Sequence record: OP114734.1
Origin: Escherichia phage vB_ESM-pEJ01
Reading direction: 5' to 3' (one strand)
Length of the DNA stretch: 64,000 nucleotides
The translations under genes and the position numbers were made by a program. Positions within the stretch are counted from its first letter, which is position 1. Each line of letters opens with the position of its first letter. Shown piece by piece: positions 2,119-39,996 of the stretch. The notes under the pieces are model-generated. The model saw only the letters and a program-made list of their open reading frames with translations. It had not been told where the DNA came from and made no database searches.

Positions 2119-3942
2119 TTATGACGCCATCCATGCCTTCCTCATGTCTGAATCTTCGCTATAGAGCAAATCGAATAGCTCTTTATAGTTTTCCGGTAAC
2201 GTGATGATCTCCATGACAGGATCGTTGATCACGCGATGATAGTCTGATTCTGTGAGCGATGCTAAACCTTTGATATATCGAATGTTGTAACCTTTGATAT
2301 TATCTCGGTCGTTCTCGAAATCTTCTAGGTCATAATACCATCGAACATCATCACCTTTCTTTGGTTCAGCAATGATAATAGGTGTTTTGATAAACCGGAT
2401 TCGTCCATCTTCGAACAATTCAGGCCAACGTGCAAAGAAAGAGATCAGACTAGGTTTAATAGACCCGATCCCGTCGGTATCAGCGTCTGTCATAATCGCA
2501 ATATTTTTGTATTGCATAACTTCCAATGCATCAACACCAAATTGCAAGCCAGTGATCGCCATGATGTTAAAAATTTCGGCGTTATTAACGATCTTTGCCT
2601 CCGGTTGTTCCCACGTTGTAAGAGTTTTGCCTCGCAACGGGAAACCTCCATGTAAATCTTGATCGCGTACAGAGATCAGATAGTTGATCGCGGAATCACC
2701 TTCCGTCAAAAACAGGGTAGTTTCTGCGTCAGTTCCAATAAGGTTAGCTTTAACGTGTTTTGCCACCTTAGCCCGTTTCGCTGCCTTTGCTGCCTTAGTC
2801 GCTGCCGCTTTATCTGCTGCCTCTTTGCGTGCCAAGACTACAGCAATAATAGGCATGATAATGTTTTCTTTCTTCGCAATGACTTTAGCCAGCTTTTTAA
2901 AATCAAGATCAATATGACGCTTGATATCACCAGTCGGGTTAGTCAAGCGTTCTTTTGTCTGTGAATCAAAACGAAGGTTAGGCAATTCACGAACAATAAG
3001 AATACAGGTCAATCCAGATTTAACCGCAGCTTTAGTAACATCAACCTTATATTCTTTCTTGATTCGTTTTACAATCTCTTCACAAAGATCATCTGTCACA
3101 TAATCAACGTGTGTTCCCCCGTTTTTGGTAAACAGACCGTTAGCAAAGGATACTGATTTAAAACCTTCTCCCTCGACCGCCGGAACTAGGGCAAGTGAAA
3201 AGTTTTTATCTTCAATGACAAACGGATCATCATTGTATAGTTTAGCATAATCCTTGAACTTACTAACAATACGTTTACCATTAAACTTAAACGTGATCTT
3301 AGGAAATATTACGCTCAATGATTGCAGACGATCATGAACAATATCTAAAACAGAGTTGTCCATCATATAACCTTCGAAGTGGTCGAAGTCTGGACAAAAT
3401 GTAACCTTCGTTCCCTTCAATTTTGATGGTTTTGATGACCATGTGACATTTTCAGCACCGTTTGTGCATTGAACGGTCATTTCTGTTTCGCCGTCACAGG
3501 TCACACCAGTAAACCAATCGCTAAAGAAATTTGATAACGACGACCCAACACCGTTCATCCCTTGCGTTAATCGATTGGTATCATCAAAGTTAGACCCTGC
3601 TTTTGTTCGTGTCCATGCGGCTACAGGTTGCGGAATCTGCGTACCCTCTGGGGTAGTAACCATATGTTGAGGAATACCGCGACCATTGTCTGTTACCGTA
3701 ACAATATTGTTTTGGATATCGACGCTAATCACATTGGCAAATTCAAAGTTAGTGCGGATCGCCTCGTCTACAGAGTTGTCGATGATCTCATCAATGATTT
3801 TAACCAGTCCAGGAACGTATGAAATTTTTGTCCATTTACCGAACAGGAAACGTTGATGTTCTTCGTAAGTTGTTGATCCTATATACATTCCTGCACGCTT
3901 AAGGACATGTTCACGATCAGATAAAATGCGAAACTCACTCAT
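2119..3942 (-). CDS. 39: DNA topoisomerase II large subunit, uninterrupted (T4 gp39 plus gp60-equivalent in one 607-aa ORF)
   Basis: N-terminus MSEFRILSDREHVLKRAGMYIGS and GHKL ATPase motifs match T4 gp39; C-terminus NIAIMTDADTDGIGSI...RYIKGLASL matches T4 gp60. Confidence 0.9.
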   Translation of the reverse strand: MSEFRILSDREHVLKRAGMYIGSTTYEEHQRFLFGKWTKISYVPGLVKIIDEIIDNSVDEAIRTNFEFANVISVDIQNNIVTVTDNGRGIPQHMVTTPEGTQIPQPVAAWTRTKAGSNFDDTNRLTQGMNGVGSSLSNFFSDWFTGVTCDGETEMTVQCTNGAENVTWSSKPSKLKGTKVTFCPDFDHFEGYMMDNSVLDIVHDRLQSLSVIFPKITFKFNGKRIVSKFKDYAKLYNDDPFVIEDKNFSLALVPAVEGEGFKSVSFANGLFTKNGGTHVDYVTDDLCEEIVKRIKKEYKVDVTKAAVKSGLTCILIVRELPNLRFDSQTKERLTNPTGDIKRHIDLDFKKLAKVIAKKENIIMPIIAVVLARKEAADKAAATKAAKAAKRAKVAKHVKANLIGTDAETTLFLTEGDSAINYLISVRDQDLHGGFPLRGKTLTTWEQPEAKIVNNAEIFNIMAITGLQFGVDALEVMQYKNIAIMTDADTDGIGSIKPSLISFFARWPELFEDGRIRFIKTPIIIAEPKKGDDVRWYYDLEDFENDRDNIKGYNIRYIKGLASLTESDYHRVINDPVMEIITLPENYKELFDLLYSEDSDMRKAWMAS

Positions 3943-11080: not shown

Positions 11081-11716
11081 TCAAGCGAACGTAGAAAGCA
11101 AATGTTTTGTTTCTTTCAGTTGTCTTTCAAGATCTTTGCGTTTCTCTTTAAGTTGCATTTTAGCATTATTTCGCTCTCTTGAAACCTCTCTATCAATGCT
11201 CTTAGTCCAATTATCAATATCAGAATAAGTTGGCATACCCAATTCTAAGCCTAATGCGGTTGGATACAGGGTAACAGTCCATAAACCGCTAATCTTCTTA
11301 AATAGGTCGGGGTGTAGTGTACTATCTACATCTTCCGGTGTCAACTCTTTTTCTTCTTTCAGTGGTGGGATCTCGTCATATGGTTCCAGTGCATTTACTT
11401 TAATATCAGATACCTCATCAAAGAATCCGCGTACATCCGCAGGAAATACACAAGCAATTTCCCAACCGTGGTCACGCAGAGAAGTAATATTTTTCACTCC
11501 CCCACCATGTGTGATGATTGATGTGACATTGCCATCAAGGTCCACCGAATTTACGAGAAATGGCTTATCGTCTGTCAGATCATTATAAAACTGTGCTTCG
11601 GCTGTAGTCATCTCCAGAAACAGATCTCGGATCGGACGACCATCAGGTGCGTTACCTTCCTTGAGAGTATAAAAACGACTTACGATCCATTTTGGCGGTA
11701 AAGCATTAGCGATCAT
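11081..11716 (-). CDS. hypothetical protein (211 aa), basic coiled-coil C-terminus
   Basis: ORF track; no confident motif. Confidence 0.5.
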   Translation of the reverse strand: MIANALPPKWIVSRFYTLKEGNAPDGRPIRDLFLEMTTAEAQFYNDLTDDKPFLVNSVDLDGNVTSIITHGGGVKNITSLRDHGWEIACVFPADVRGFFDEVSDIKVNALEPYDEIPPLKEEKELTPEDVDSTLHPDLFKKISGLWTVTLYPTALGLELGMPTYSDIDNWTKSIDREVSRERNNAKMQLKEKRKDLERQLKETKHLLSTFA

Positions 11717-11766: not shown

Positions 11767-13179
11767 TTAGAAAGTCATGTTATTTGCTAGCTCGTCGAGT
11801 TTTTCTCGTTTCTCGGCTTGCTGTGCGCTTTGTGGTTTAACTTGTGCATTCTCCTGATCTGCGATCTGGTTTGGTACTTCATACCAACGCTGATTGCCTT
11901 TTTTCACACCAACGTTAAACCGTGAATAATAGTTCTTATCACCGTAACGAGACTTGATCTGCTTCATGAGTTGGACGCCCATTTTAGCCAGGTCTTCGGT
12001 TTCGATAACACCCAACATAAAGTCGGCAGTAGCCGGAAGACCTGCCGATTCAGCGGTATCACTCATGTTAAGGTCGGAAGCATCCCAACCCGCGCGGGTA
12101 GTCTGTGCCGCAGTCCAACCAACAACATCCCACTTAACAAAAAATCCTCGCAGTTCTTCCGCAATCGCCTTAACTAGTGTGTAACTATTTTCAGAGTATA
12201 CACGCAAGCGAGACGATGCGCAAATCCCAAGATAGTCAACAATCACAACATCAGGTTTAAACTGTTTCTTGAGTCGCAATTCATTCATTAACGCCTCAAA
12301 GTGATTGGAGTTCGCGCCACCAGTCGGATACTGCTTGATCATCAATTTTCCAACCGGACGATCTCCGATCTTCTTATTCTTAACACGCTTCATACGTGCG
12401 GAATATTCCGCAAAAGAAACATTACCATTATCCAATTCATCTAATGTAATGTCAAGCAAGTTTGCGTCAATACGTTTGGCTACGACATGCTCTGCCATCT
12501 CCATTGAGATATACAATACATCATAACCACATTCCATATAATCCGCAGCAAGAGAACACAGTCCAAGCGATTTGCCAACGTTTACACCAGCAAGCAACAC
12601 GTTTAGCGTTTTTCTTTCCGCCCCTCCTTTCGTGATTTTATTCAACATCGGCAGCTTAAATGGGATCTTATTCGCCTTAGTCTGATATAACAGGAATCGT
12701 TTTTCAAAGTCATTAAACCAGTCATGACCTACATCAGAATCAAACGTAATGGATAGTGCTTCCTGCATAATTTCAGGAATAGCGCCCTCACTAGGCAATT
12801 TCTTATTCTGTTTCTCTTTTGGTAGTTGTGCGTTCGCCTGAATCTCTAGCGCCCGTGACATTGCATTGTACATAGCACGGTCACGAATAAATTTTTCGGT
12901 TTCCTTCATTAACCAATCAAGGTCTTCCGGTGTATTCTCCAGCGAATCGAGAAGAGTTTTAGCCCCTTCATATGTTGTCTGATTGCCTCTCTCCTTGTCT
13001 AAAGCAATCTGTAATGCAGTTGGCGTAGGAATATTGGAATATTCGTCTACGTGCTTTTTAATCAGCTTATAAATCAGTTTTTCTTCGTCTTCGGTGAAGT
13101 AGTCCGCTTTAAGGTGAGGCCATACATTCGTAAAGAATGCGCCATTGTAAATCAACTGTGAAAAGATAGTTTTAATCAT
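11767..13179 (-). CDS. 41: replicative DNA helicase gp41 (DnaB-like)
   Basis: Near-colinear with remembered T4 gp41: LNVLLAGVNVGKSLGLCSLAADY, YISMEMAE, IKSRYGDKN. Confidence 0.93.
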   Translation of the reverse strand: MIKTIFSQLIYNGAFFTNVWPHLKADYFTEDEEKLIYKLIKKHVDEYSNIPTPTALQIALDKERGNQTTYEGAKTLLDSLENTPEDLDWLMKETEKFIRDRAMYNAMSRALEIQANAQLPKEKQNKKLPSEGAIPEIMQEALSITFDSDVGHDWFNDFEKRFLLYQTKANKIPFKLPMLNKITKGGAERKTLNVLLAGVNVGKSLGLCSLAADYMECGYDVLYISMEMAEHVVAKRIDANLLDITLDELDNGNVSFAEYSARMKRVKNKKIGDRPVGKLMIKQYPTGGANSNHFEALMNELRLKKQFKPDVVIVDYLGICASSRLRVYSENSYTLVKAIAEELRGFFVKWDVVGWTAAQTTRAGWDASDLNMSDTAESAGLPATADFMLGVIETEDLAKMGVQLMKQIKSRYGDKNYYSRFNVGVKKGNQRWYEVPNQIADQENAQVKPQSAQQAEKREKLDELANNMTF

Positions 13180-27420: not shown

Positions 27421-28890
27421 CTATTCCCCATTGCCATTATACTTTCTTTGCTTAGTTATCCACACTCTAACCATCTCTACTGATTCACCGTCAGACGGAT
27501 CAAGAGTTTTTCCTTTTTTCTTCATGCGGTACTTAAATCCGTTAAATCTTGCATTCTCTTGCTCGTTAAAGTCGAACATCTTTTTAAATGATTTTCGCCC
27601 TTTACGCTCACCACATTCTAGCGGAATCATTCGGTCTGTTATTACATTGGCATTAGGTAGAAACGTTTTTAGATAATCCACCAACGCCCAATCAGGAACA
27701 TATAGATTAACATTCTCCTTGCTCTCGTTGTCTCTCAGGTTACAACGCAAACATAATTGAAATGCTGGTTCCAGATAATCAGACACATGACGCGCTTTCA
27801 AAAACTCATTTGTCGGGAGATCACAACTATTAGCAAGACCTTTTAAAATATCAATCTCCCATCGTTGAGGGTTAAAGCTGAACATCACAGCAACATTTTT
27901 ATGATGAATGTAAGAGTTAAGACCATAAGATCCGTAAGGTATCCGCTCACCAATACCATTTGTACACGCTTCACGGTCCCGATTCACGGTATAAATGAAG
28001 TCATCACCACATTCATTTTTAACCATATCAACAAGACGTTCAAAGGTATTGTTTGTTTCTGACTGGTGACGCGACCATCGTTCGGAGTCCGTCATGAGGA
28101 TGATATTAACTCTATCTGTATTTTTATACTCTTTGAAATATAGTCGGGATTCTAGCGCACTCGGAACAAAATCGCAATTTTCATAGTATCGTAGATACTT
28201 CCCGCTATATGTATCAAAGAGATTTGCACATGCTATCGTAACCTTTTTAAAGTCTCCCCACGTACCGTGTTTGTTATCGTTCAAGAAAACAATTTTCGAC
28301 CCGTTCTTCCGGTGTCCTTCGTTATGTTTTACCATAACGTTGATTTTCTTCTCTAATAACGCCTCATAAAGCCCTCTAAGAGAAGAATCGATCATATCAG
28401 TACCATCCTTTGCACTTTCTATCTTTTCTTTGATAGCGGCCTTCTCAGAGTCTTTTAGAACTAAGTTCTGTAGGCATTCCGATTCGTCGGCGATTGGTTC
28501 GCAATGCTTCGTGATAAGTTCAAGATTAGACTTAAACGGATACTCATTAAATTCAACCAGTTGAGGAACTTCATCAATGTAAAGAGCATATTCACCAAAC
28601 ATTTTTGAACGTTCCATATTAGATAACGCTGTATGTGTAATGAATATCACATCAGCACCATCTTTAACTGATTGCATTATCGACGCTTGCACTGTCTTAA
28701 GGCTTCTTAGTCTTGTGCTATCAATCAAGACAGCACGACCGCCCATTCTTTTAAACTTATTGTAAGATTGTTCACTTAAAACACGAGATGGCGAAGCAAT
28801 AACCGCTTTTTCTTTTGTCTCTAGGACGTGGGAAAGTATAGCATCAGTTTTCCCCGCCGCTGGCAATGCGATTAATGTTTCAATCTTCAT
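27421..28890 (-). CDS. P-loop NTPase of unknown function (489 aa)
   Basis: Walker A LPAAGKT near N-terminus; candidate Walker B ALYIDEV about 95 aa later; large unassigned C-terminal region; sits where T4 carries alpha-gt. Confidence 0.6.
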   Translation of the reverse strand: MKIETLIALPAAGKTDAILSHVLETKEKAVIASPSRVLSEQSYNKFKRMGGRAVLIDSTRLRSLKTVQASIMQSVKDGADVIFITHTALSNMERSKMFGEYALYIDEVPQLVEFNEYPFKSNLELITKHCEPIADESECLQNLVLKDSEKAAIKEKIESAKDGTDMIDSSLRGLYEALLEKKINVMVKHNEGHRKNGSKIVFLNDNKHGTWGDFKKVTIACANLFDTYSGKYLRYYENCDFVPSALESRLYFKEYKNTDRVNIILMTDSERWSRHQSETNNTFERLVDMVKNECGDDFIYTVNRDREACTNGIGERIPYGSYGLNSYIHHKNVAVMFSFNPQRWEIDILKGLANSCDLPTNEFLKARHVSDYLEPAFQLCLRCNLRDNESKENVNLYVPDWALVDYLKTFLPNANVITDRMIPLECGERKGRKSFKKMFDFNEQENARFNGFKYRMKKKGKTLDPSDGESVEMVRVWITKQRKYNGNGE

Positions 28891-29357: not shown

Positions 29358-29616
29358 AAATCGCCCTCAGTTCTTTATAGCCTCCAATGTGCTCGTTGTC
29401 AATGAATATCTGGGGGTATACAAACCGGAGGCTCTTTGAGTTTAGCCTCCCCGCCAGTTCTTCAATCATATCACGGTCGGGAATAATGTCAACCCCGACC
29501 TGCTTGAATACTGGTTTAAGTGTATACGGAATACCCAGATCATCCAGTAGCTTCATTGCACTAATACAACCATAACAATGATAAGCCTCTTTCGGTATAC
29601 CGTATATCTCGATCAT
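29347..29616 (-). CDS. glutaredoxin/NrdH-like redoxin
   Basis: CxxC active site YHCYGC near N-terminus, 89 aa. Confidence 0.7.
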   Translation of the reverse strand: MIEIYGIPKEAYHCYGCISAMKLLDDLGIPYTLKPVFKQVGVDIIPDRDMIEELAGRLNSKSLRFVYPQIFIDNEHIGGYKELRAIYDY

Positions 29617-30089
29617 TTCTCAGCCTTTAATCTTTCTAGTTCTTCTTCCAGTTCCTTGATCCGTTGGTCGCGTTCAAAGTCACGCTGTAACTTAGTGGCG
29701 AATACTCGTTTAAACTGATTGTAATCATCGATTTTAAACACTTCTTCTTCGCCATAGCGACGCACAGAAACTTCGTAGTTATTGAAGAATTGTTGCATCA
29801 TTGCTTCGGATGATAGTTCTGCTGATACTACTTTAAAATATTGATCTTCTGTAGGCGAAAACCAATTACAAGCATAAAGATAAACCTTTTCATTGTCTGG
29901 ACACTGGTAAGCCTTACCATCGATTTCAATCACAGAAACATATTCAGGTATACTAGATGAATCAATAGCTAAGACTTTAAACGCACGGTCCCCGATAAAC
30001 TCGGAGATCACACGATTCGCATCACTGGTTGCAAATGCTTTACGCGCTTGTTCGTTTTTCCACTGATAGGTCATACCAACAACAAACAT
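29613..30089 (-). CDS. modular paralog family member (one N-terminal beta-domain plus conserved C-terminal helical module)
   Basis: VGMTYQWKNEQARKAF...FKVLAID...IEIDGKAY...WF; start set to ATG 30089 (GAGGA SD); paralogous to neighbours. Confidence 0.55.
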   Translation of the reverse strand: MFVVGMTYQWKNEQARKAFATSDANRVISEFIGDRAFKVLAIDSSSIPEYVSVIEIDGKAYQCPDNEKVYLYACNWFSPTEDQYFKVVSAELSSEAMMQQFFNNYEVSVRRYGEEEVFKIDDYNQFKRVFATKLQRDFERDQRIKELEEELERLKAEK

Positions 30090-30090
30090 A

Positions 30091-30915
30091 TTACCATCCT
30101 CGCTCTTTACCAATCAAAAATTCAACTTCACGACGTTTAATGTCTTCTTGAAGGTCTTTAATCTTCTGGCGATCTTGCATGATTTCATCCATCTTGTCAA
30201 GTGCCGCAATGAAATCATCGAAACGTTCAAAGGTTTTACCTTCATTTGCTTCGCCAAATTTAACCATTGTCAGGCCGTAACGACTACTAAACAGACGTTT
30301 CAACTGTCCAACGATTTTAGAATCAGTGGTTATAACTTCCAATTCTTCTACTTCACGAAAGAATTTTCTATCAGAATCAATAAACCAGCTAGTTCCTTTA
30401 TGGTCTCTATCTTCGGTTGCGCTCATTAGAGTATGGTCTTTACCATCAATTTCAATTACATCAATTTGCCCACATGGACTAACATTTTTAACAGTAAAAG
30501 GTCTATAATTTATTGCTCGTGCAATAACATAATTAAGGTTAGATACGTTTTCAGCATAATGGCAGAAGTCGGTCATAGCATTCGCATCTTTCCAAGTATA
30601 AGTTTTACCAACTTCCCATTTCTGGGGAACTTCTTCAACTTCACGAAAGAATTTTCTATCGAATGGACTAAAGAAATATGTTGCCGTCCAAATGTCTTTT
30701 CCTGTAGCAGTTTTCGCCGTATGATAAACACCGTCTAGCTCTATTGCATAAATCCAACCGTTACCATCGATCTCGATGATGGTAAATGGCTTGTCACCAA
30801 TAGCTGCACTAATATCGCTGTTAAGTGGAGAAAGAACACCTTCTCCGTTAGTAATAAACTCAGTTTTAGCGTTTTCGTCTTTCCAGGTGTAAGTTTTACC
30901 AATTTCCCATTTCAT
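30091..30915 (-). CDS. modular paralog family member with two tandem N-terminal domains
   Basis: MKWEIGKTYTWKDENAKTEF... and QKWEVGKTYTWKDANAMTDF..., both ending DRKFFREVEE; DNA repeat cttcacgaaagaattttctatc at 30351 and 30639. Confidence 0.6.
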   Translation of the reverse strand: MKWEIGKTYTWKDENAKTEFITNGEGVLSPLNSDISAAIGDKPFTIIEIDGNGWIYAIELDGVYHTAKTATGKDIWTATYFFSPFDRKFFREVEEVPQKWEVGKTYTWKDANAMTDFCHYAENVSNLNYVIARAINYRPFTVKNVSPCGQIDVIEIDGKDHTLMSATEDRDHKGTSWFIDSDRKFFREVEELEVITTDSKIVGQLKRLFSSRYGLTMVKFGEANEGKTFERFDDFIAALDKMDEIMQDRQKIKDLQEDIKRREVEFLIGKERGW

Positions 30916-30927
30916 AATATATTCCCC

Positions 30928-31395
30928 TTAACCGATTTTATCAAGTTCGTTTAATGCTTTCTCTGCTTCCTGTATAGCTTGCACCCTTTCCGGCATTTTG
31001 TCAAGAAAATCTTTCAACTCTTCAAAACTGGAGATATGACGCAAGGCGTTAGCACCGATAGCCGCATGTGATTTGCATTCAAAGCGGATTTTATAATTAT
31101 CCATCGCCAACTTGAGAAGATCAATTAATTTAGATTCTTCTGGAATAATAATAATTTCTTCAAATCTGCTACGGTCATGATCCAGAAACCAACAAGATAG
31201 ACCTACATCGGTTGAACTCATATAAGTTCCATCATGAAGATAAACAGATCGCACGTATCCTTTTTTCGCATCAACCGACGCAACTTTAAACGGTAATCGC
31301 AGATATTTCAAATAATCAACATCATACCATTTAAAAAATTGGTTTGCATCTTTTACATCTTTCCACGCATAGGTCTTACCAACTTCCCATTTCAT
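30928..31395 (-). CDS. modular paralog family member
   Basis: MKWEVGKTYAWKD...FKVASVD; start set to ATG 31395. Confidence 0.55.
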   Translation of the reverse strand: MKWEVGKTYAWKDVKDANQFFKWYDVDYLKYLRLPFKVASVDAKKGYVRSVYLHDGTYMSSTDVGLSCWFLDHDRSRFEEIIIIPEESKLIDLLKLAMDNYKIRFECKSHAAIGANALRHISSFEELKDFLDKMPERVQAIQEAEKALNELDKIG

Positions 31396-31399
31396 AATA

Positions 31400-31927
31400 T
31401 CATCTCTCATTTTTGATACGTGATTCTAATTGGATCATACGGTCGCGCGTTTGTTTGTATTCTCGGATAGCACCGATCCGGCTAGGCATACCATCCAGTA
31501 CGCTCTTAATACCTTCTAGGGTAGTAATTTTGGCAATGCTATTATGTAACCCCATCTTATCGATCAACTGAATGTCGTAGGCTTCCATAAGCAGACCCAG
31601 ACGTTCTAAAGTTAGGTCTTCTTCTTTTTCTTTCGATTCTGGAATCTTAGGTTCAATAGTAACTTCGGTAAAGAAACGACGCTCACCAGCCCAAAACCAC
31701 ACACCATAACAATTGATAGAAGATTCTTTTAACGTCATCGGCTCGGTATCTTCACCGATAATGGTAATTTCACTAACATCACCATCAGCATCAAGTGCTT
31801 CTACCTTAAACGAACGACCGTTCAACAGGTCAATAATCATACTGTTAATGGATGACGAAAATTTAGTCAGTTCAGCTTTTGATATTTCACACTTAATGTT
31901 GTAGATCTTACCTACTTCCCATTCCAT
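31400..31927 (-). CDS. modular paralog family member
   Basis: MEWEVGKIYNIK...FKVEALD...RRFFTEV; start set to ATG 31927 (GAGGTGA SD). Confidence 0.55.
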   Translation of the reverse strand: MEWEVGKIYNIKCEISKAELTKFSSSINSMIIDLLNGRSFKVEALDADGDVSEITIIGEDTEPMTLKESSINCYGVWFWAGERRFFTEVTIEPKIPESKEKEEDLTLERLGLLMEAYDIQLIDKMGLHNSIAKITTLEGIKSVLDGMPSRIGAIREYKQTRDRMIQLESRIKNER

Positions 31928-31937
31928 AATAATCACC

Positions 31938-32447
31938 TCAAATAATTTTCACTGGAATACTATTAACAATCTTGTATTGTACTTGATTGTCAGACCCCCG
32001 CCACGGCTTCTTCGTTGGCATATCTTTAATATAACGCCCATCGATGAACATGTCAACTGATTCTACAATTTTTCTTTGCTCATCATTCAATTGGTCAAGG
32101 GTATAACCAGACCATAGCCAAATATCTTTATTTGGCATCCATGATTTTACTTCATCGATGATCCGCTGTACACCCTTTAAATTGCGTTTATACAGTGGAT
32201 CGCCACCTAAGAATGTTAGCCCCTGAATAAAATCAGGTCTAAGCAGGTCCAGAATCAATCCCATTGTATCATCGGTGAATGGTTCCCCGTTCTTAGGATT
32301 GAGTAGGCTAGCATTAAAGCAACCATCACATGCGTGTGAACATCCGGTAACGTAAAGGGAGACTCTCACTCCCTCACCGTTAACCATATCACAATCTTTA
32401 ATATCGGCATAGCGTAGTTTGCCGTATGTATCAGAACTCATATTCAA
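31938..32447 (-). CDS. nrdG: anaerobic ribonucleotide reductase activating protein NrdG (radical SAM)
   Basis: CSHACDGC radical-SAM cysteine cluster; about 160 aa. Confidence 0.88.
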   Translation of the reverse strand: MNMSSDTYGKLRYADIKDCDMVNGEGVRVSLYVTGCSHACDGCFNASLLNPKNGEPFTDDTMGLILDLLRPDFIQGLTFLGGDPLYKRNLKGVQRIIDEVKSWMPNKDIWLWSGYTLDQLNDEQRKIVESVDMFIDGRYIKDMPTKKPWRGSDNQVQYKIVNSIPVKII

Positions 32448-33780: not shown

Positions 33781-33808
33781 ATTATACATTAGCTAATCAT
33801 GTTGTCAA
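33781..33808 (-). promoter_or_regulatory. sigma70-type early promoter (-35 TTGACA rc 33803-33808; -10 TATAAT rc 33781-33786; 16-nt spacer)
   Basis: Perfect consensus hexamers on minus strand. Confidence 0.5.
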
Positions 33809-33824
33809 CACCCCAAAACGAAAA

Positions 33825-33846
33825 AGCCGACCCTTTCGGATCGGCT
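33825..33846 (-). terminator. rho-independent terminator 3' of nrdD
   Basis: rc hairpin agccgatccgaaagggtcggct followed by UUUUCGUUUU. Confidence 0.5.
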
Positions 33847-35758: not shown

Positions 35759-36253
35759 TTATTTTACCAGTTCTGCTAATTCTTTTTCTTTAGCTTCTAG
35801 TTCAGCTTTAAGCTGTTTAATCTCTTGTCGCTTCTTATTAGCGGCTTCTTGCTTACTATTTCGGATAACCTGATCTAGATACAACTCCCAATCCTGAATA
35901 TTTTTGATAATGTAACCGTCAACATTAATTGGTCGGAGATTCAGTACAGCTTCCAGTTTAGTTGCAAAAACTTTAATTGCTGGTGTGAAGTATTCATACT
36001 CGTTATCTTCAAACCAATAACCTAGACTTGCATTCTCAATACGAAGATGAAGTTTAAGATCAAGGTCTTTATCTTCGGTGTAAAGATCTTTCACCTGACC
36101 CAGCGAACTAACAACAACTTTAAAACGAATTTTATCTACACCACCAAACACATCAGTAAGTATACCAGCAATTGAGCTATTAGCGCAAGATTGGTCGCTG
36201 AATGCGTCAAGGTTTTCTTTAGTTACAGTATACCAAACATCTTGTACCCACAT
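35759..36253 (-). CDS. hypothetical protein (164 aa), coiled-coil C-terminus
   Basis: ORF track. Confidence 0.5.
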   Translation of the reverse strand: MWVQDVWYTVTKENLDAFSDQSCANSSIAGILTDVFGGVDKIRFKVVVSSLGQVKDLYTEDKDLDLKLHLRIENASLGYWFEDNEYEYFTPAIKVFATKLEAVLNLRPINVDGYIIKNIQDWELYLDQVIRNSKQEAANKKRQEIKQLKAELEAKEKELAELVK

Positions 36254-36307
36254 AATATAATCCTCTCATTGTTAAGTGGGAGTATTATAGCATACTCCCT
36301 TCGCATG

Positions 36308-37486
36308 TCAAGCACTAACTTTTTTCTTTACTGCTTTCACCTTCTGGCGAATTGCTCGAATCTCTTCGATCTCTTTTTCAGTCTCTTTAACAATTTCTTT
36401 GCGATTCTGAATATCTGTATCTAGATTATCATCAAGTTTAGGCAGCATGTCAATCAAGAACTTTTTAAAGTCTTTCAGGTTTCGGATAACAGCACCTTCA
36501 CCCATTACCGCCACGCCTACACCATCCGGCAGATCACCAAACAGCTTAACCAGTTCAGACAGATGATCATGATCTTCTAGTGCTTCTTCCGGTTCAGATG
36601 GCAGTTCAACAAAGTTATAACGTTCATCATTGCTGATCAAGTGATACCAGCAAAGCCCGAAAGATTTCGGTGTATATTCTACACCATCAATTTCAACCGC
36701 GTCAACACTTCCATAATCATCTACTTTAGTTACCTTAAATCCTTGTCCCAGCTTTTGAACAATTTCAACAACATGACTTGATACAGTTTCAGCGGTAAAC
36801 CAATATGGCAAATTATGCTGATTTGGTTTGTAGCGTTCACCTACTTTAAATCTCTGACCATCCGCTTGCATAGAATGAAATTGTTGTTTCGTGATTTCCG
36901 CGAAGTATTCAAATTCGCTACCGTCAAACAAGCAATTCCATTGATCACAAAAACGATCTGCCTTAACAGTTTCACCTTTCGCGGTGATCATGGTAGCTGA
37001 TCCGTGCAATTCTTCTTCAACTAAAAAGCCATATTCGACAAAATCAACAAGTTTCATAGCTTCTTTGTGATCTGGATCATGCTCTCCCCAGAATCGCTTA
37101 AATTCTTGCAAACCTTCTGGGGTAAACGAATAACATTTACCTTTTTCAAAGTAAGTCGGCATTGCATCCTCTTTCTTGTTCATCGCTTCGTATGCCTCTT
37201 TTGAGATACGTTTAAAGAATTTACGCTCATCGTGCATAATCATAGTAGCCCAATAATAAACGATATCCTCAGCGGAATAAACTACATCTCCAGCTTCAAT
37301 AGTAATAACATGACCGTGGTCATCTTTTTCTAATACTTTAAAGCCCTTTTCTACGATTTCAGCAACCCGAATATGACCACGGCGCGAAGCATCGGTCAGA
37401 ATAATTGAATAGCGAGAAAAGTCTAGAAACTCATCTTTACCGCCTTCACGGAATGCATAGTAATGACCTTCAAAGAATTTAGCCAT
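36308..37486 (-). CDS. modular paralog family member with three tandem N-terminal domains
   Basis: Three repeats (...GFKVLEKDDHGHVITIE...; ...GFLVEEELHG...; ...GFKVTKVDDYGSVDAVEIDG...) plus C-terminal LSELVKLFGDLP helical module; GAGGATTATATTATG start. Confidence 0.6.
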   Translation of the reverse strand: MAKFFEGHYYAFREGGKDEFLDFSRYSIILTDASRRGHIRVAEIVEKGFKVLEKDDHGHVITIEAGDVVYSAEDIVYYWATMIMHDERKFFKRISKEAYEAMNKKEDAMPTYFEKGKCYSFTPEGLQEFKRFWGEHDPDHKEAMKLVDFVEYGFLVEEELHGSATMITAKGETVKADRFCDQWNCLFDGSEFEYFAEITKQQFHSMQADGQRFKVGERYKPNQHNLPYWFTAETVSSHVVEIVQKLGQGFKVTKVDDYGSVDAVEIDGVEYTPKSFGLCWYHLISNDERYNFVELPSEPEEALEDHDHLSELVKLFGDLPDGVGVAVMGEGAVIRNLKDFKKFLIDMLPKLDDNLDTDIQNRKEIVKETEKEIEEIRAIRQKVKAVKKKVSA

Positions 37487-37542
37487 AATATAATCCTCTC
37501 GTTGTTTAGACGGGAGTATCTTACTACTCCCGTTTCATCATG

Positions 37543-38109
37543 TCAAGCGTTAAATGACTTTTGGATCTCTTTCAGTTCAGCTACTTTATCGGCGCTGAAT
37601 TTAGCGTAGGTATCATGTCGAATAATTTCACTTTCAAGAAAGGTTTCCAGCCGAGATCTATTTTCAATAAGGAACTCTTTCAGGTCTTCTGCGTTCTTGA
37701 TAAAGATTTTATTGTCGGTAATGTCATCTTCAATCGCAAAGGAGATAGAGCGAACTTTACCAAACAAGTTAATCAAATCTTCCAGTGATTCTTCTTTCTT
37801 AACTGGTTTCATTTCTTCAAACTGCTTTTTAGTGATGCGTTTAAAGTATTTGCGCTCGCTTGCGTCAATCATGATTGACGCGCCCTCATAATCATGAGTT
37901 TCTACCAAATATACTTTACCCATAACATTAACCGTAAGAACTTTAAAGCCCTTGTGAAGCACACCATACAGGAACGTGTTATGTTGTGGATAGCGTTTAA
38001 CAAATTCCTCTGCGGACTCAGCATTACGGAAAGTGTAATAACGACCTCGTTCAAAAACAGCATCATTTGAAGACTTAGCCGGATACAATTTATACGTTTT
38101 CTGTACCAT
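37543..38109 (-). CDS. modular paralog family member
   Basis: MVQKTYKLY...GFKVLTVNVMGKVYLVE...RKYFKRI; C-terminal LEDLINLFGKV module; start at ATG 38109. Confidence 0.55.
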   Translation of the reverse strand: MVQKTYKLYPAKSSNDAVFERGRYYTFRNAESAEEFVKRYPQHNTFLYGVLHKGFKVLTVNVMGKVYLVETHDYEGASIMIDASERKYFKRITKKQFEEMKPVKKEESLEDLINLFGKVRSISFAIEDDITDNKIFIKNAEDLKEFLIENRSRLETFLESEIIRHDTYAKFSADKVAELKEIQKSFNA

Positions 38110-38123
38110 AATATAATCCTCTA

Positions 38124-38396
38124 TCATTTCACTAATTGAACAGCACGGAACAGAATGCGCTCACACGGAAGCAGCATAAATTCCCAACGCGGATCAAAGT
38201 CTTTAGCGGTGTATGTTTTCCCATCAACCGAGATTTCACTTACATAACCAACAGGTGACACTTTAAGAACAGTAAACCCATTCTTGATGACTTCGTAGGT
38301 ATCTTTCACCCCTTCGTATTCATCATCTAAGAAGTCTTTATGTGCTTGCTCAGATTTAAAAACATAGGCAACACCGGATTTAAACATCTTACGCAT
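38124..38396 (-). CDS. modular paralog family member (single N-domain, no C-terminal module)
   Basis: MRKMFKSGVAYVFKSEQAHKDF...GFTVLKVSPVGYVSEISVDGKTY; start at ATG 38396 with AGGAGAATC SD. Confidence 0.5.
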   Translation of the reverse strand: MRKMFKSGVAYVFKSEQAHKDFLDDEYEGVKDTYEVIKNGFTVLKVSPVGYVSEISVDGKTYTAKDFDPRWEFMLLPCERILFRAVQLVK

Positions 38397-38427
38397 TGTT
38401 GATTCTCCTTCTTGATTAGATGGGAGT

Positions 38428-38456
38428 ATTTTACTACTCCCATTTCTTATTGTCAA
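38428..38456 (-). promoter_or_regulatory. sigma70-type early promoter (-35 TTGACA rc 38451-38456; -10 TAAAAT; inverted repeat gggagta/tactccc)
   Basis: 17-nt spacer; IR 38422-38441 overlaps -10. Confidence 0.45.
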
Positions 38457-38459
38457 CTA

Positions 38460-38933
38460 CTATCTTAATCTTTGTATAAATTGTTTCTTATACTTCTTCG
38501 TGATCTCTTCTCTTGTATCAGCGTCACAATAATCGAAACCTTCTGCGTCCATAATAGCAACCATCTCCGCGCGTGTCAAGCGTGAAAATCGTTTTACTTT
38601 ATCAACAGCATATTGAGGATGTAAATGATTGTTGGTGTAGTCTCCTTTGATGTAATTAACATAGTTTGTAGCCCAAACAACGAAATCAGCACCTAAAGCA
38701 CCAACACCAAACCGTTTAAAGTCTCCGGTCAACGATCCTTCTAGGCGGTTGCAACACGAATGAAGCAATCCCCTTACGCGGCCTTGCCCTTTCCCATCTA
38801 GATCGTGGTCGTGGTCAAGATGGTTTTTGCTCATATCCTCAAAAAGTGGCAATTGACAAAGGGGGCAAATGCCCCCCTGTTTTTCGAATAGTTCTTGTTT
38901 GTACTCTTTAGCACTCTTAGCAGTCAGTAACAT
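38460..38933 (-). CDS. 49: endonuclease VII (Holliday junction resolvase) gp49
   Basis: GGICPLCQ...NHLDHDHDLDG...VRGLLHSCCN...NHLHPQY match remembered T4 EndoVII; start at ATG 38933 (GGAGGG SD). Confidence 0.88.
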   Translation of the reverse strand: MLLTAKSAKEYKQELFEKQGGICPLCQLPLFEDMSKNHLDHDHDLDGKGQGRVRGLLHSCCNRLEGSLTGDFKRFGVGALGADFVVWATNYVNYIKGDYTNNHLHPQYAVDKVKRFSRLTRAEMVAIMDAEGFDYCDADTREEITKKYKKQFIQRLR

Positions 38934-38957
38934 AAATTCACCCTCCAAAGAAGGTAT

Positions 38958-39240: not shown

Positions 39241-39996
39241 TTATACCTCATTCAGTTCTATATCAAGTTCATTTTCAATAATATAGGCATTAACTGCCCG
39301 TGCCGCATCATCTTCTGTGTCAAATCTTCCTATATACACACCGCGAACTTTAGCACCGTAATTACCTTGTTTTGGTACTTTGTAAACGTATCTATGACGG
39401 GAACTTGCTGCTTTTTGGAGCTTCTTGCCATATTCAGACTTTGCATATTCTATATCATCAATCTCGTTTATACAAGACCTATCACCAAAATGTTTCAACG
39501 CTGCAAGATTATATGCATAAGCCGCACCGATCTCGGAGGGAAAATATCCTAAATGTATAGACTTCCCATCCAACATTATTGCACCAGTCCAATAACCTTT
39601 ATTCTTATTAAACGACACACCTTTATACTTCGAATATGTTTTGCATTTGGTCTTGCTCATATTCATATTATTTTGTTTGCTTGTCGTCTCTCTAAGGTTT
39701 TCAATGCGGCTATTATAACGATCTCGGTCTTTATGATCTATATACTTAGGACAATGACCATGAAACATATGATAGATAACACGGTGCATACGTTCGTATC
39801 GCTCGCCAGTCCATACAATACGATACCCATCGGGGGTATCACTTCCAGCTAATCCGTTTATAACACCTTTTCGGTGCGGGTGAATCTTCCACCTAAGAAA
39901 ACCATCATCATAATAAAACCGTGAATGATATAAATCATACAAACGTTTATCTTCTGGAGTCTTGTGTATAACCTCATATTTTAACATTGGTGACAT
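39241..39996 (-). CDS. HNH homing endonuclease with two AP2-type DNA-binding domains
   Basis: HNH HRVIYHMFHGHCPKYIDHKDRDRYNSRIENLRETTSKQN; AP2-like YKGVSFNKNKGYWTGAIM...AAYAYN and YGAKVRGVYIGRFDTEDDAARAVN. Confidence 0.8.
   Translation of the reverse strand: MSPMLKYEVIHKTPEDKRLYDLYHSRFYYDDGFLRWKIHPHRKGVINGLAGSDTPDGYRIVWTGERYERMHRVIYHMFHGHCPKYIDHKDRDRYNSRIENLRETTSKQNNMNMSKTKCKTYSKYKGVSFNKNKGYWTGAIMLDGKSIHLGYFPSEIGAAYAYNLAALKHFGDRSCINEIDDIEYAKSEYGKKLQKAASSRHRYVYKVPKQGNYGAKVRGVYIGRFDTEDDAARAVNAYIIENELDIELNEV

Follow-up and report, generated by a model that had tools for sequence, protein, structure and literature searches.

The closest described relatives of the proteins considered here belong to the GoF/Frd.2/MotB.1 family with an 'LSm-like fold', which includes GoF (ComC-alpha) of bacteriophage T4 (Kim et al. 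2025, PMC12152347). Wild-type T4 GoF has no known function, is non-essential and runs as both a monomer and a dimer, and it is only the GoF(D25Y) mutant, not the wild-type protein, that stabilises the gene 41 mRNA (Kim et al., PMC12152347). Tandem domains, duplication, paralogs and phage RB49 are not mentioned by Kim et al. (PMC12152347). A second described system concerns the rearrangement of whole genes, which in phages RB49 and phi1 are moved by PeSL, i.e., intergenic cassettes composed of a promoter and a terminator (Arbiol et al. 2010, PMC2839356); the array described below, nrdG, nrdH and paralogs are not mentioned in that report.

The proteins analysed here resemble T4 GoF in having a homologous N-terminal domain of ~90 aa, with the same predicted five-stranded barrel and FeoA/IdeR-like structural neighbours, and in the flexible linker that joins it to a C domain of variable type; they are likewise acidic and encoded by T4-like phages in genome regions that hold non-essential genes. 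They differ in that GoF contains one N domain, whereas the 274-aa protein contains two in tandem, and the C domains are unrelated. Moreover, T4 has only gene 55.8 between nrdG and nrdH, in contrast to a four-gene array in Krischvirus. Similarly to PeSL shuffling, the locus lies in a hyperplastic region of the same phage group, and modules would be swapped, deleted or inserted at short conserved joints; however, the putative joints of the array lie within genes, as head and tail motifs of the coding sequence, and what they exchange would be a protein domain. A further parallel is offered by gp38 of T-even phages, a receptor-binding adhesin of the virion whose role is known. It is reportedly mosaic, with conserved glycine-rich motifs flanking hypervariable segments. 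In both cases phages exchange hypervariable segments that lie between short conserved motifs, but the array proteins, unlike gp38, are non-structural.

The array between nrdG and nrdH

The window, i.e., the whole stretch of 64,000 nucleotides (64 kb) of record OP114734.1 that was analysed, is from the genome of a Krischvirus (RB49-like), family Straboviridae. A region of 2.5 kb around the two-domain gene matched 58 phage records, all of them RB49-like T-even phages of the genus Krischvirus; at least 80% of this region was covered in 54 of the 58, with 92–97% nucleotide identity among the matches listed. The RB49 annotation of the region gives four consecutive hypothetical genes, RB49p048 to RB49p051, located between nrdH (glutaredoxin) and nrdG. 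In the window, the four paralogs are arranged head-to-tail, inserted between nrdG and nrdH with spacers of 1–12 nt, and they encode, from the annotated starts, proteins of 158, 274, 154 and 175 aa. In each of them, an N domain of ~90–95 aa is connected through a short linker to a C domain of ~70–80 aa, which is helical. Pfam has no family for any of the four, while all of them match phrog_5347 (E from 1e-59 to 1e-92), and in PHROGs they are tied to families labelled 'goF mRNA metabolism modulator'. The genes and a candidate promoter are as follows:

29613–30089, minus strand: paralog g158, RB49p048 homologue, with a GoF-like N domain and a coiled-coil C domain (phrog_5347, E 1.4e-60)
30091–30915, minus strand: gene of the two-domain GoF-like protein of 274 aa (g274), RB49p049 homologue (phrog_5347, E 1.1e-92, two matched stretches)
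30928–31395, minus strand: paralog g160, 154 aa, RB49p050 homologue (phrog_5347, E 5.7e-60)
31400–31927, minus strand: paralog g178, 175 aa, RB49p051 homologue (phrog_5347, E 4.6e-59)
32028–32056, minus strand: candidate early promoter, sigma-70-like TTGACA-17-TATATT with an 11/12 match, ~100 nt upstream of the array

A Shine-Dalgarno-like AAGGGG lies 8–9 nt 5′ of the ATG of the 274-aa gene. Sigma-70-like promoter matches at 32056–32028 and 33808–33781 suggest that the array may be expressed early. No terminator-plus-promoter pair was found between the paralogs, from 29613 to 31936; modules of the array are not flanked by a promoter and a stem-loop as in PeSL, and their breakpoints fall at the coding head and tail motifs. 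The only nearby PeSL-like element is a cassette at 33781–33846 (minus strand), directly after the nrdD stop codon, in which a 9-bp GC-rich stem-loop with a T-run is followed by a perfect TTGACA-16-TATAAT; it corresponds to the promoter-early stem-loop elements known from RB49 and phi1.

The g160 homologue is split by a frameshift in phage FL15 (2008–2488 of locus L005), and so is the g158 homologue in ELT4 (3048–3544 of L011) and in a Logan contig (3467–3938 of L014), sequencing error being possible in each case. These frameshifted paralogs suggest that individual array members may be dispensable. Between the array and gene 55, positions 27421–28890 (minus strand) encode a conserved hypothetical protein of 489 aa, a homologue of RB49p044; on a Logan contig, the homologue of this protein has only a weak precomputed Pfam match to DEAD helicases.

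The repeated GoF-type domain of the 274-aa protein

The first-pass annotation had described two repeats of ~96 aa in the 274-aa protein and had read them as an internal tandem duplication. Both repeats were recovered here: residues 1–97 and 98–193, referred to as N1 and N2, share 48 identities over 96 positions, and their Smith-Waterman score was 213, as compared to 28 ± 4.6 (maximum 55) in 500 shuffles. The domains and the short repeats at their ends are located as follows:

30625–30915, minus strand: N1, the first GoF-NTD-like SH3/LSm-like barrel, aa 1–97 (domain HMM E 4.6e-43)
30337–30624, minus strand: N2, the second domain copy, aa 98–193, of allele type N2A (domain HMM E 4.7e-46)
30091–30336, minus strand: constant C domain, aa 194–274, predicted as a helix, a beta-hairpin and a 40-residue helix
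30631–30660, no strand assigned: tail repeat at the end of N1, coding for DRKFFREVEE
30343–30372, no strand assigned: tail repeat at the end of N2, which holds the single-domain junction of phages E26 and ELT4
30877–30912, minus strand: head repeat at the start of N1 (KWEIGKTYTWKD), with the AV108 junction in its shared TGGAAAGA
30586–30621, minus strand: head repeat at the start of N2 (KWEVGKTYTWKD)

The 22-mer CTTCACGAAAGAATTTTCTATC, claimed earlier to occur twice, is indeed present without mismatch at 30351 and 30639, 288 nt apart (0 expected in shuffles), and it sits inside the 30-nt tail repeats, which are identical at 29 of 30 positions. A further claim, that the motif of the N terminus recurs at the start of four adjacent genes, holds for three of them (starts at 30915, 31395 and 31927) but not for the fourth (start at 30089), where it is degenerate, MFVVGMTYQWKN. 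This head motif, KWE(V/I)GKTY, also occurs once inside the 274-aa gene, at the start of N2.

Over the 288-nt unit, N1 and N2 are 56.6% identical in DNA (codon alignment) and 50% identical in protein, and this divergence is unevenly distributed. The interior of the units shows 33–50% identity per 30-nt window, whereas the ends are alike: in the codon alignment 25 of the first 30 nt and 29 of the 30 nt at positions 256–285 are identical. Of the identical residues, those in the tail share their codon at 9 of 10 positions, against 10 of 27 for those in the interior (Fisher p = 0.008). Since the interior has diverged while the ends and the tail codons are conserved, the duplication would be old, with both ends kept or made alike at the nucleotide level. 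The divergence between the copies is too high for Tandem Repeats Finder to report the 288-nt period. N1 and N2 are mutually closest, with only 30–38% amino acid identity to the N domains of the other three genes, and an internal tandem duplication of the N-terminal domain in one array paralog is the best reading of these data, as the first-pass annotation had proposed.

That annotation had also raised the concern that the array might be an assembly artefact, the repeat having been collapsed or expanded in OP114734.1. The mere presence of a repeat is all that speaks for this explanation. The two-domain architecture occurs in 55 of 58 independently sequenced Krischvirus records and is shared by the early reference genomes RB49, Phi1 and JSE; another 52 GenBank records, which many laboratories produced on many platforms, contain the same 825-nt gene. 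In addition, the copies are only 57% identical in DNA with no more than 30 nt of near-identity, and purifying selection acts on the reading frame, which is uninterrupted. As a near-identity of 30 nt is too short to confuse an assembler, it excludes the concern together with the independent records, and we regard the probability of an artefact as negligible. Thus, the duplication is real, and the fast-evolving phage gene family in which it occurs is of a known kind.

In order to identify the repeated domain, profiles of the paralogs were compared with described families. Using hhalign, the paralog profile matched residues 3–92 of T4 GoF with a probability of 96% (E 4.9e-9), only the N domain being covered. 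The g274 protein matches phrog_622 at 4.5e-19, the family in which T4 GoF is found (4.6e-38), and GoF in turn also matches phrog_5347 at 6.5e-7. At the level of sequence profiles, the repeated unit is shown to be a GoF-type domain homologous to the N-terminal domain of T4 GoF. The same type of comparison against T4 MotB.1 was not significant (probability 6%), and a PDB sequence search with the N+C profile and the C profile returned nothing significant (best E 0.19 and 0.025, respectively). In the hhalign alignment, G84 of GoF, the second suppressor site (G84R), is aligned with the lysine of the DRKFF tail motif, so that G84R moves GoF towards the residue type of the array proteins.

The AlphaFold2 model of the 274-aa protein (pLDDT 80.8) predicts two five-stranded barrels with helices inserted after strand 1. 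The predicted strands are at residues 8–11, 44–49, 55–60, 63–66 and 90–93 in N1, and at 105–108, 140–145, 151–156, 159–161 and 186–189 in N2. A linker at 192–198, between N2 and the C domain, is predicted to be disordered (pLDDT < 50), and the arrangement of domains relative to each other is of low confidence (pTM 0.48). As in the GoF family, the modelled N-terminal part is a bent five-stranded antiparallel beta-sheet of ~80–90 aa with FeoA/IdeR-type SH3-like neighbours. However, sequence identity to the C-terminal SH3-like domains of FeoA and IdeR is only 5–13%, and common ancestry or a metal-related function is unsupported. Membership in the canonical Sm/LSm/Hfq group, which would involve an N-terminal helix, ring formation and Hfq/Sm proteins as the closest structural neighbours, was considered and rejected. 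The C domain, modelled alone (pLDDT 85), resembles only generic coiled coils; it is likely to be an oligomerisation module. The N domains are acidic, with a pI of 4.6–5.1 (4.6 for GoF); our guess is that this acidity favours recognition of a protein over direct binding of RNA.

Architectures and alleles among related phages

Since cross-matches between N1 and N2 inflate the lengths of tblastn matches and make them an unreliable guide to allele type, the N1, N2A and N2B bodies were searched one at a time, N2B being a second N2 type first seen in metagenomic proteins. The N1 body matched 57 GenBank records, N2A 53 and N2B 3. The 58 records comprise 52 with N1-N2A-C, three with N1-N2B-C (UPWr_E1, JK32 and FL04), two with N1-C (E26 and ELT4) and one with N2A-C (AV108), hence the domain copy number is polymorphic in nature. 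In UPWr_E1, JK32 and locus L008, N2A is replaced by an unrelated-looking N2B (44–47% nucleotide identity). When proteins from genomes and metagenomes were clustered together, the 70 clusters included ~38 of N1-N2A-C, 18 of N1-N2B-C, 11 of N1-C, some of them with a divergent N1, one of N2A-C and one chimera. A scan of IMG/VR returned only two loci.

The single-domain genes could be resolved at their junctions. The E26 gene has 537 nt, exactly 288 nt less than the 825-nt gene, and its junction lies within a 24-nt stretch that is identical in both tail repeats, with N1-type CCATTC upstream and N2-type GTA GAA GAA TTG downstream. In the 534-nt gene of AV108, N1-type synonymous sites (ATT, TAC, ACC) are followed by N2 sequence from the shared TGGAAAGA of the head motif.

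The chimera, P0069, has 154 aa and combines the head of the g178 N domain, the tail of N2B and the C domain of g274 (3001–3465 of locus L014, Logan contig SRR11185258_147272). On this contig, the array between nrdG and nrdH is reduced to two genes. P0069 could be a product of inter-paralog recombination or of short-read misassembly, and it should be treated with caution because the contig is a short-read Logan assembly.

The exchange of N domains is not limited to the two-domain gene. When the nrdG-to-nrdH interval of 11 related phages was aligned to the window, nrdG and nrdH were 95–100% identical in nucleotides, and the tails and C domains of all four paralogs 86–100%, whereas the bodies of the N domains formed discrete allele classes at 44–80% identity, which assort independently between genomes. 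Two to three such classes are found in each of the other paralogs: three in g158, two in g160 (57% nucleotide identity, with a constant C domain) and classes of 56–80% identity in g178 (C domain 93–98%). N1, N2A and N2B form one protein group at 36–53% amino acid identity, as compared to at most 33% for the N domains of other paralogs. Selective constraint differs between the domains as well. Pairwise Nei-Gojobori estimates gave a dN/dS of 0.01–0.02 for the C domain, at a dS of up to 0.36, versus ~0.5 for N1, at a dS of ~0.4, in the comparison with phage 011D4.

We put the probability at roughly three in four that the gene encodes two copies of a GoF-type barrel and a constant C domain derived from an old internal duplication and reshaped by recombination at the head and tail motifs. 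The duplication of a ~288-nt domain-coding unit within one paralog lineage would have doubled the N domain. Recombination through homology, possibly of short length, would later have reshaped the locus at two joints whose nucleotide sequence is conserved, namely the head motif KWEVGKTYTWKD and the tail motif (D/E)RKFFREVE. The N bodies that distinguish N2A from N2B, and those that define the allele classes of all the paralogs, would have been swapped with these joints as their ends; the joints would also be the sites where a copy is removed, at the tail in E26 and ELT4 and at the head in AV108, and where neighbouring paralogs fuse, as in P0069. Judged by junction sequences alone, however, each copy-number change may have run in either direction, and the codon conservation at the joints could reflect recent gene conversion instead of upkeep of the joints for recombination. 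The process as such is of a familiar kind, i.e., domain duplication and cassette exchange in a hyperplastic region of the phage genome, here on a recently described family.

A fusion of genes could also lead to a doubled N domain, if a deletion between two adjacent sister paralogs, N-C and N-C, took out the first C domain together with the spacer and left N-N-C. Such an event is favoured by the layout of the array, in which head-to-tail N-C genes are only 1–12 nt apart, and P0069, from an array that is down to two genes, would be an example of an inter-paralog recombinant. However, no existing paralog is as close to N1 or N2 as these two are to each other, a separate pair of N1-C and N2-C genes was seen at the locus in none of the genomes examined, and the N1-N2 junction (EEVPQ-KWEV) bears no trace of a C domain, a stop codon or a ribosome-binding site. 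We thus consider the fusion unlikely.

Even less probable, in our opinion, is that the single-domain alleles are ancestral, E26, ELT4 and AV108 being relics, and that N1-C and N2A-C genes of co-infecting phages produced the two-domain form by unequal recombination. Both single-domain types exist, the N1-C type is diverse in metagenomes (11 of 70 clusters), and the E26 junction is just what an ancestral N1-C allele would show, so that it fits that origin as well as it does a deletion. Given the frequency of N1-C clusters and the divergent N1 in some of them, certain single-domain lineages may be old and not recent deletions. On the other hand, two domains are present in 55 of 58 isolates, including lineages with a divergent N1 (011D4) and with N2B; the order in AV108, N1-type sites and then N2-type sequence, is the signature of an N1/N2 crossover within a two-domain gene; and N2A-C is nearly identical (98%) to the corresponding part of the two-domain genes.

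Possible role of the family and other GoF-domain genes in the window

The contrast between a constrained C domain and fast-evolving, exchangeable N domains points to the N domains as the seat of specificity, and it suggests that the GoF-like family takes part in the host-phage arms race. Members of the family may be non-essential early host-takeover factors, which we consider plausible at somewhat less than even odds. The fast-evolving acidic N domains would then bind a target that varies, be it a protein of the host or RNA, and the strongly conserved C domain would provide oligomerisation or contact with a constant partner. A protein with two N domains would be bivalent, carrying two different specificities on one scaffold.

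More speculatively, and in our view this is rather doubtful, the head (KWEVGKTYTWKD) and tail (RKFFREVE) motifs might, beyond their structural part, be kept as nucleotide-level joints because they allow T-even phages the combining, multiplying and discarding of SH3-like target-recognition cassettes on constant C scaffolds. If so, the locus would be an intragenic counterpart of PeSL shuffling and a population-level repertoire of host-takeover or counter-defence factors, of which the two-domain gene would be one frozen product.

The GoF family was recognised only in 2025. The locus supplies a natural set of variants from otherwise near-identical phages, with one constant C domain joined to N1, N2A, N1+N2A or N1+N2B. 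Such isogenic-like variants could be compared directly with regard to host range, evasion of defence and effects on RNA.

Multi-domain relatives exist elsewhere, as proteins with two or three matched stretches recurred in the search of representative proteins. Examples of multi-domain GoF-like proteins are phrog_8944 (376 positions), phrog_13003, phrog_20291 and the 392-aa protein listed below, which are similar to the 274-aa protein in having two to three tandem barrels and a helical C domain and in being found in Straboviridae. They differ in that their duplications are independent and far more diverged, with domains only 15–25% identical to N1 and N2. A second cluster of GoF-domain genes is present just upstream of nrdD, at 35759–38456 (minus strand), and one more gene lies at a distance:

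35759–36253, minus strand: GoF-domain gene, 164 aa (phrog_15067)
36308–37486, minus strand: GoF-domain gene, 392 aa, with three tandem N domains (phrog_8944 'goF', E 6.6e-214)
37543–38127, minus strand: GoF-domain gene of the second cluster, 194 aa
38124–38456, minus strand: GoF-domain gene of the second cluster, N domain only
11081–11716, minus strand: gene with a 211-aa product whose N domain is GoF-like (domain HMM E 1.4e-6; phrog_16187)

With the array, the second cluster and the last of these genes, at least nine genes of the window carry the domain; with respect to annotation, they form one domain superfamily which as yet has no Pfam coverage. The gene at 11081–11716 is located directly downstream of an ORF at 11767–13179 (minus strand) that resembles the gene 41 replicative helicase, a curious position because the only known GoF phenotype concerns the gene 41 mRNA. 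An ORF of 251 aa at 39241–39996 (minus strand) adjoins an endonuclease VII-like ORF at 38460–38948 and, as read from its sequence only, may be homing-endonuclease-like.
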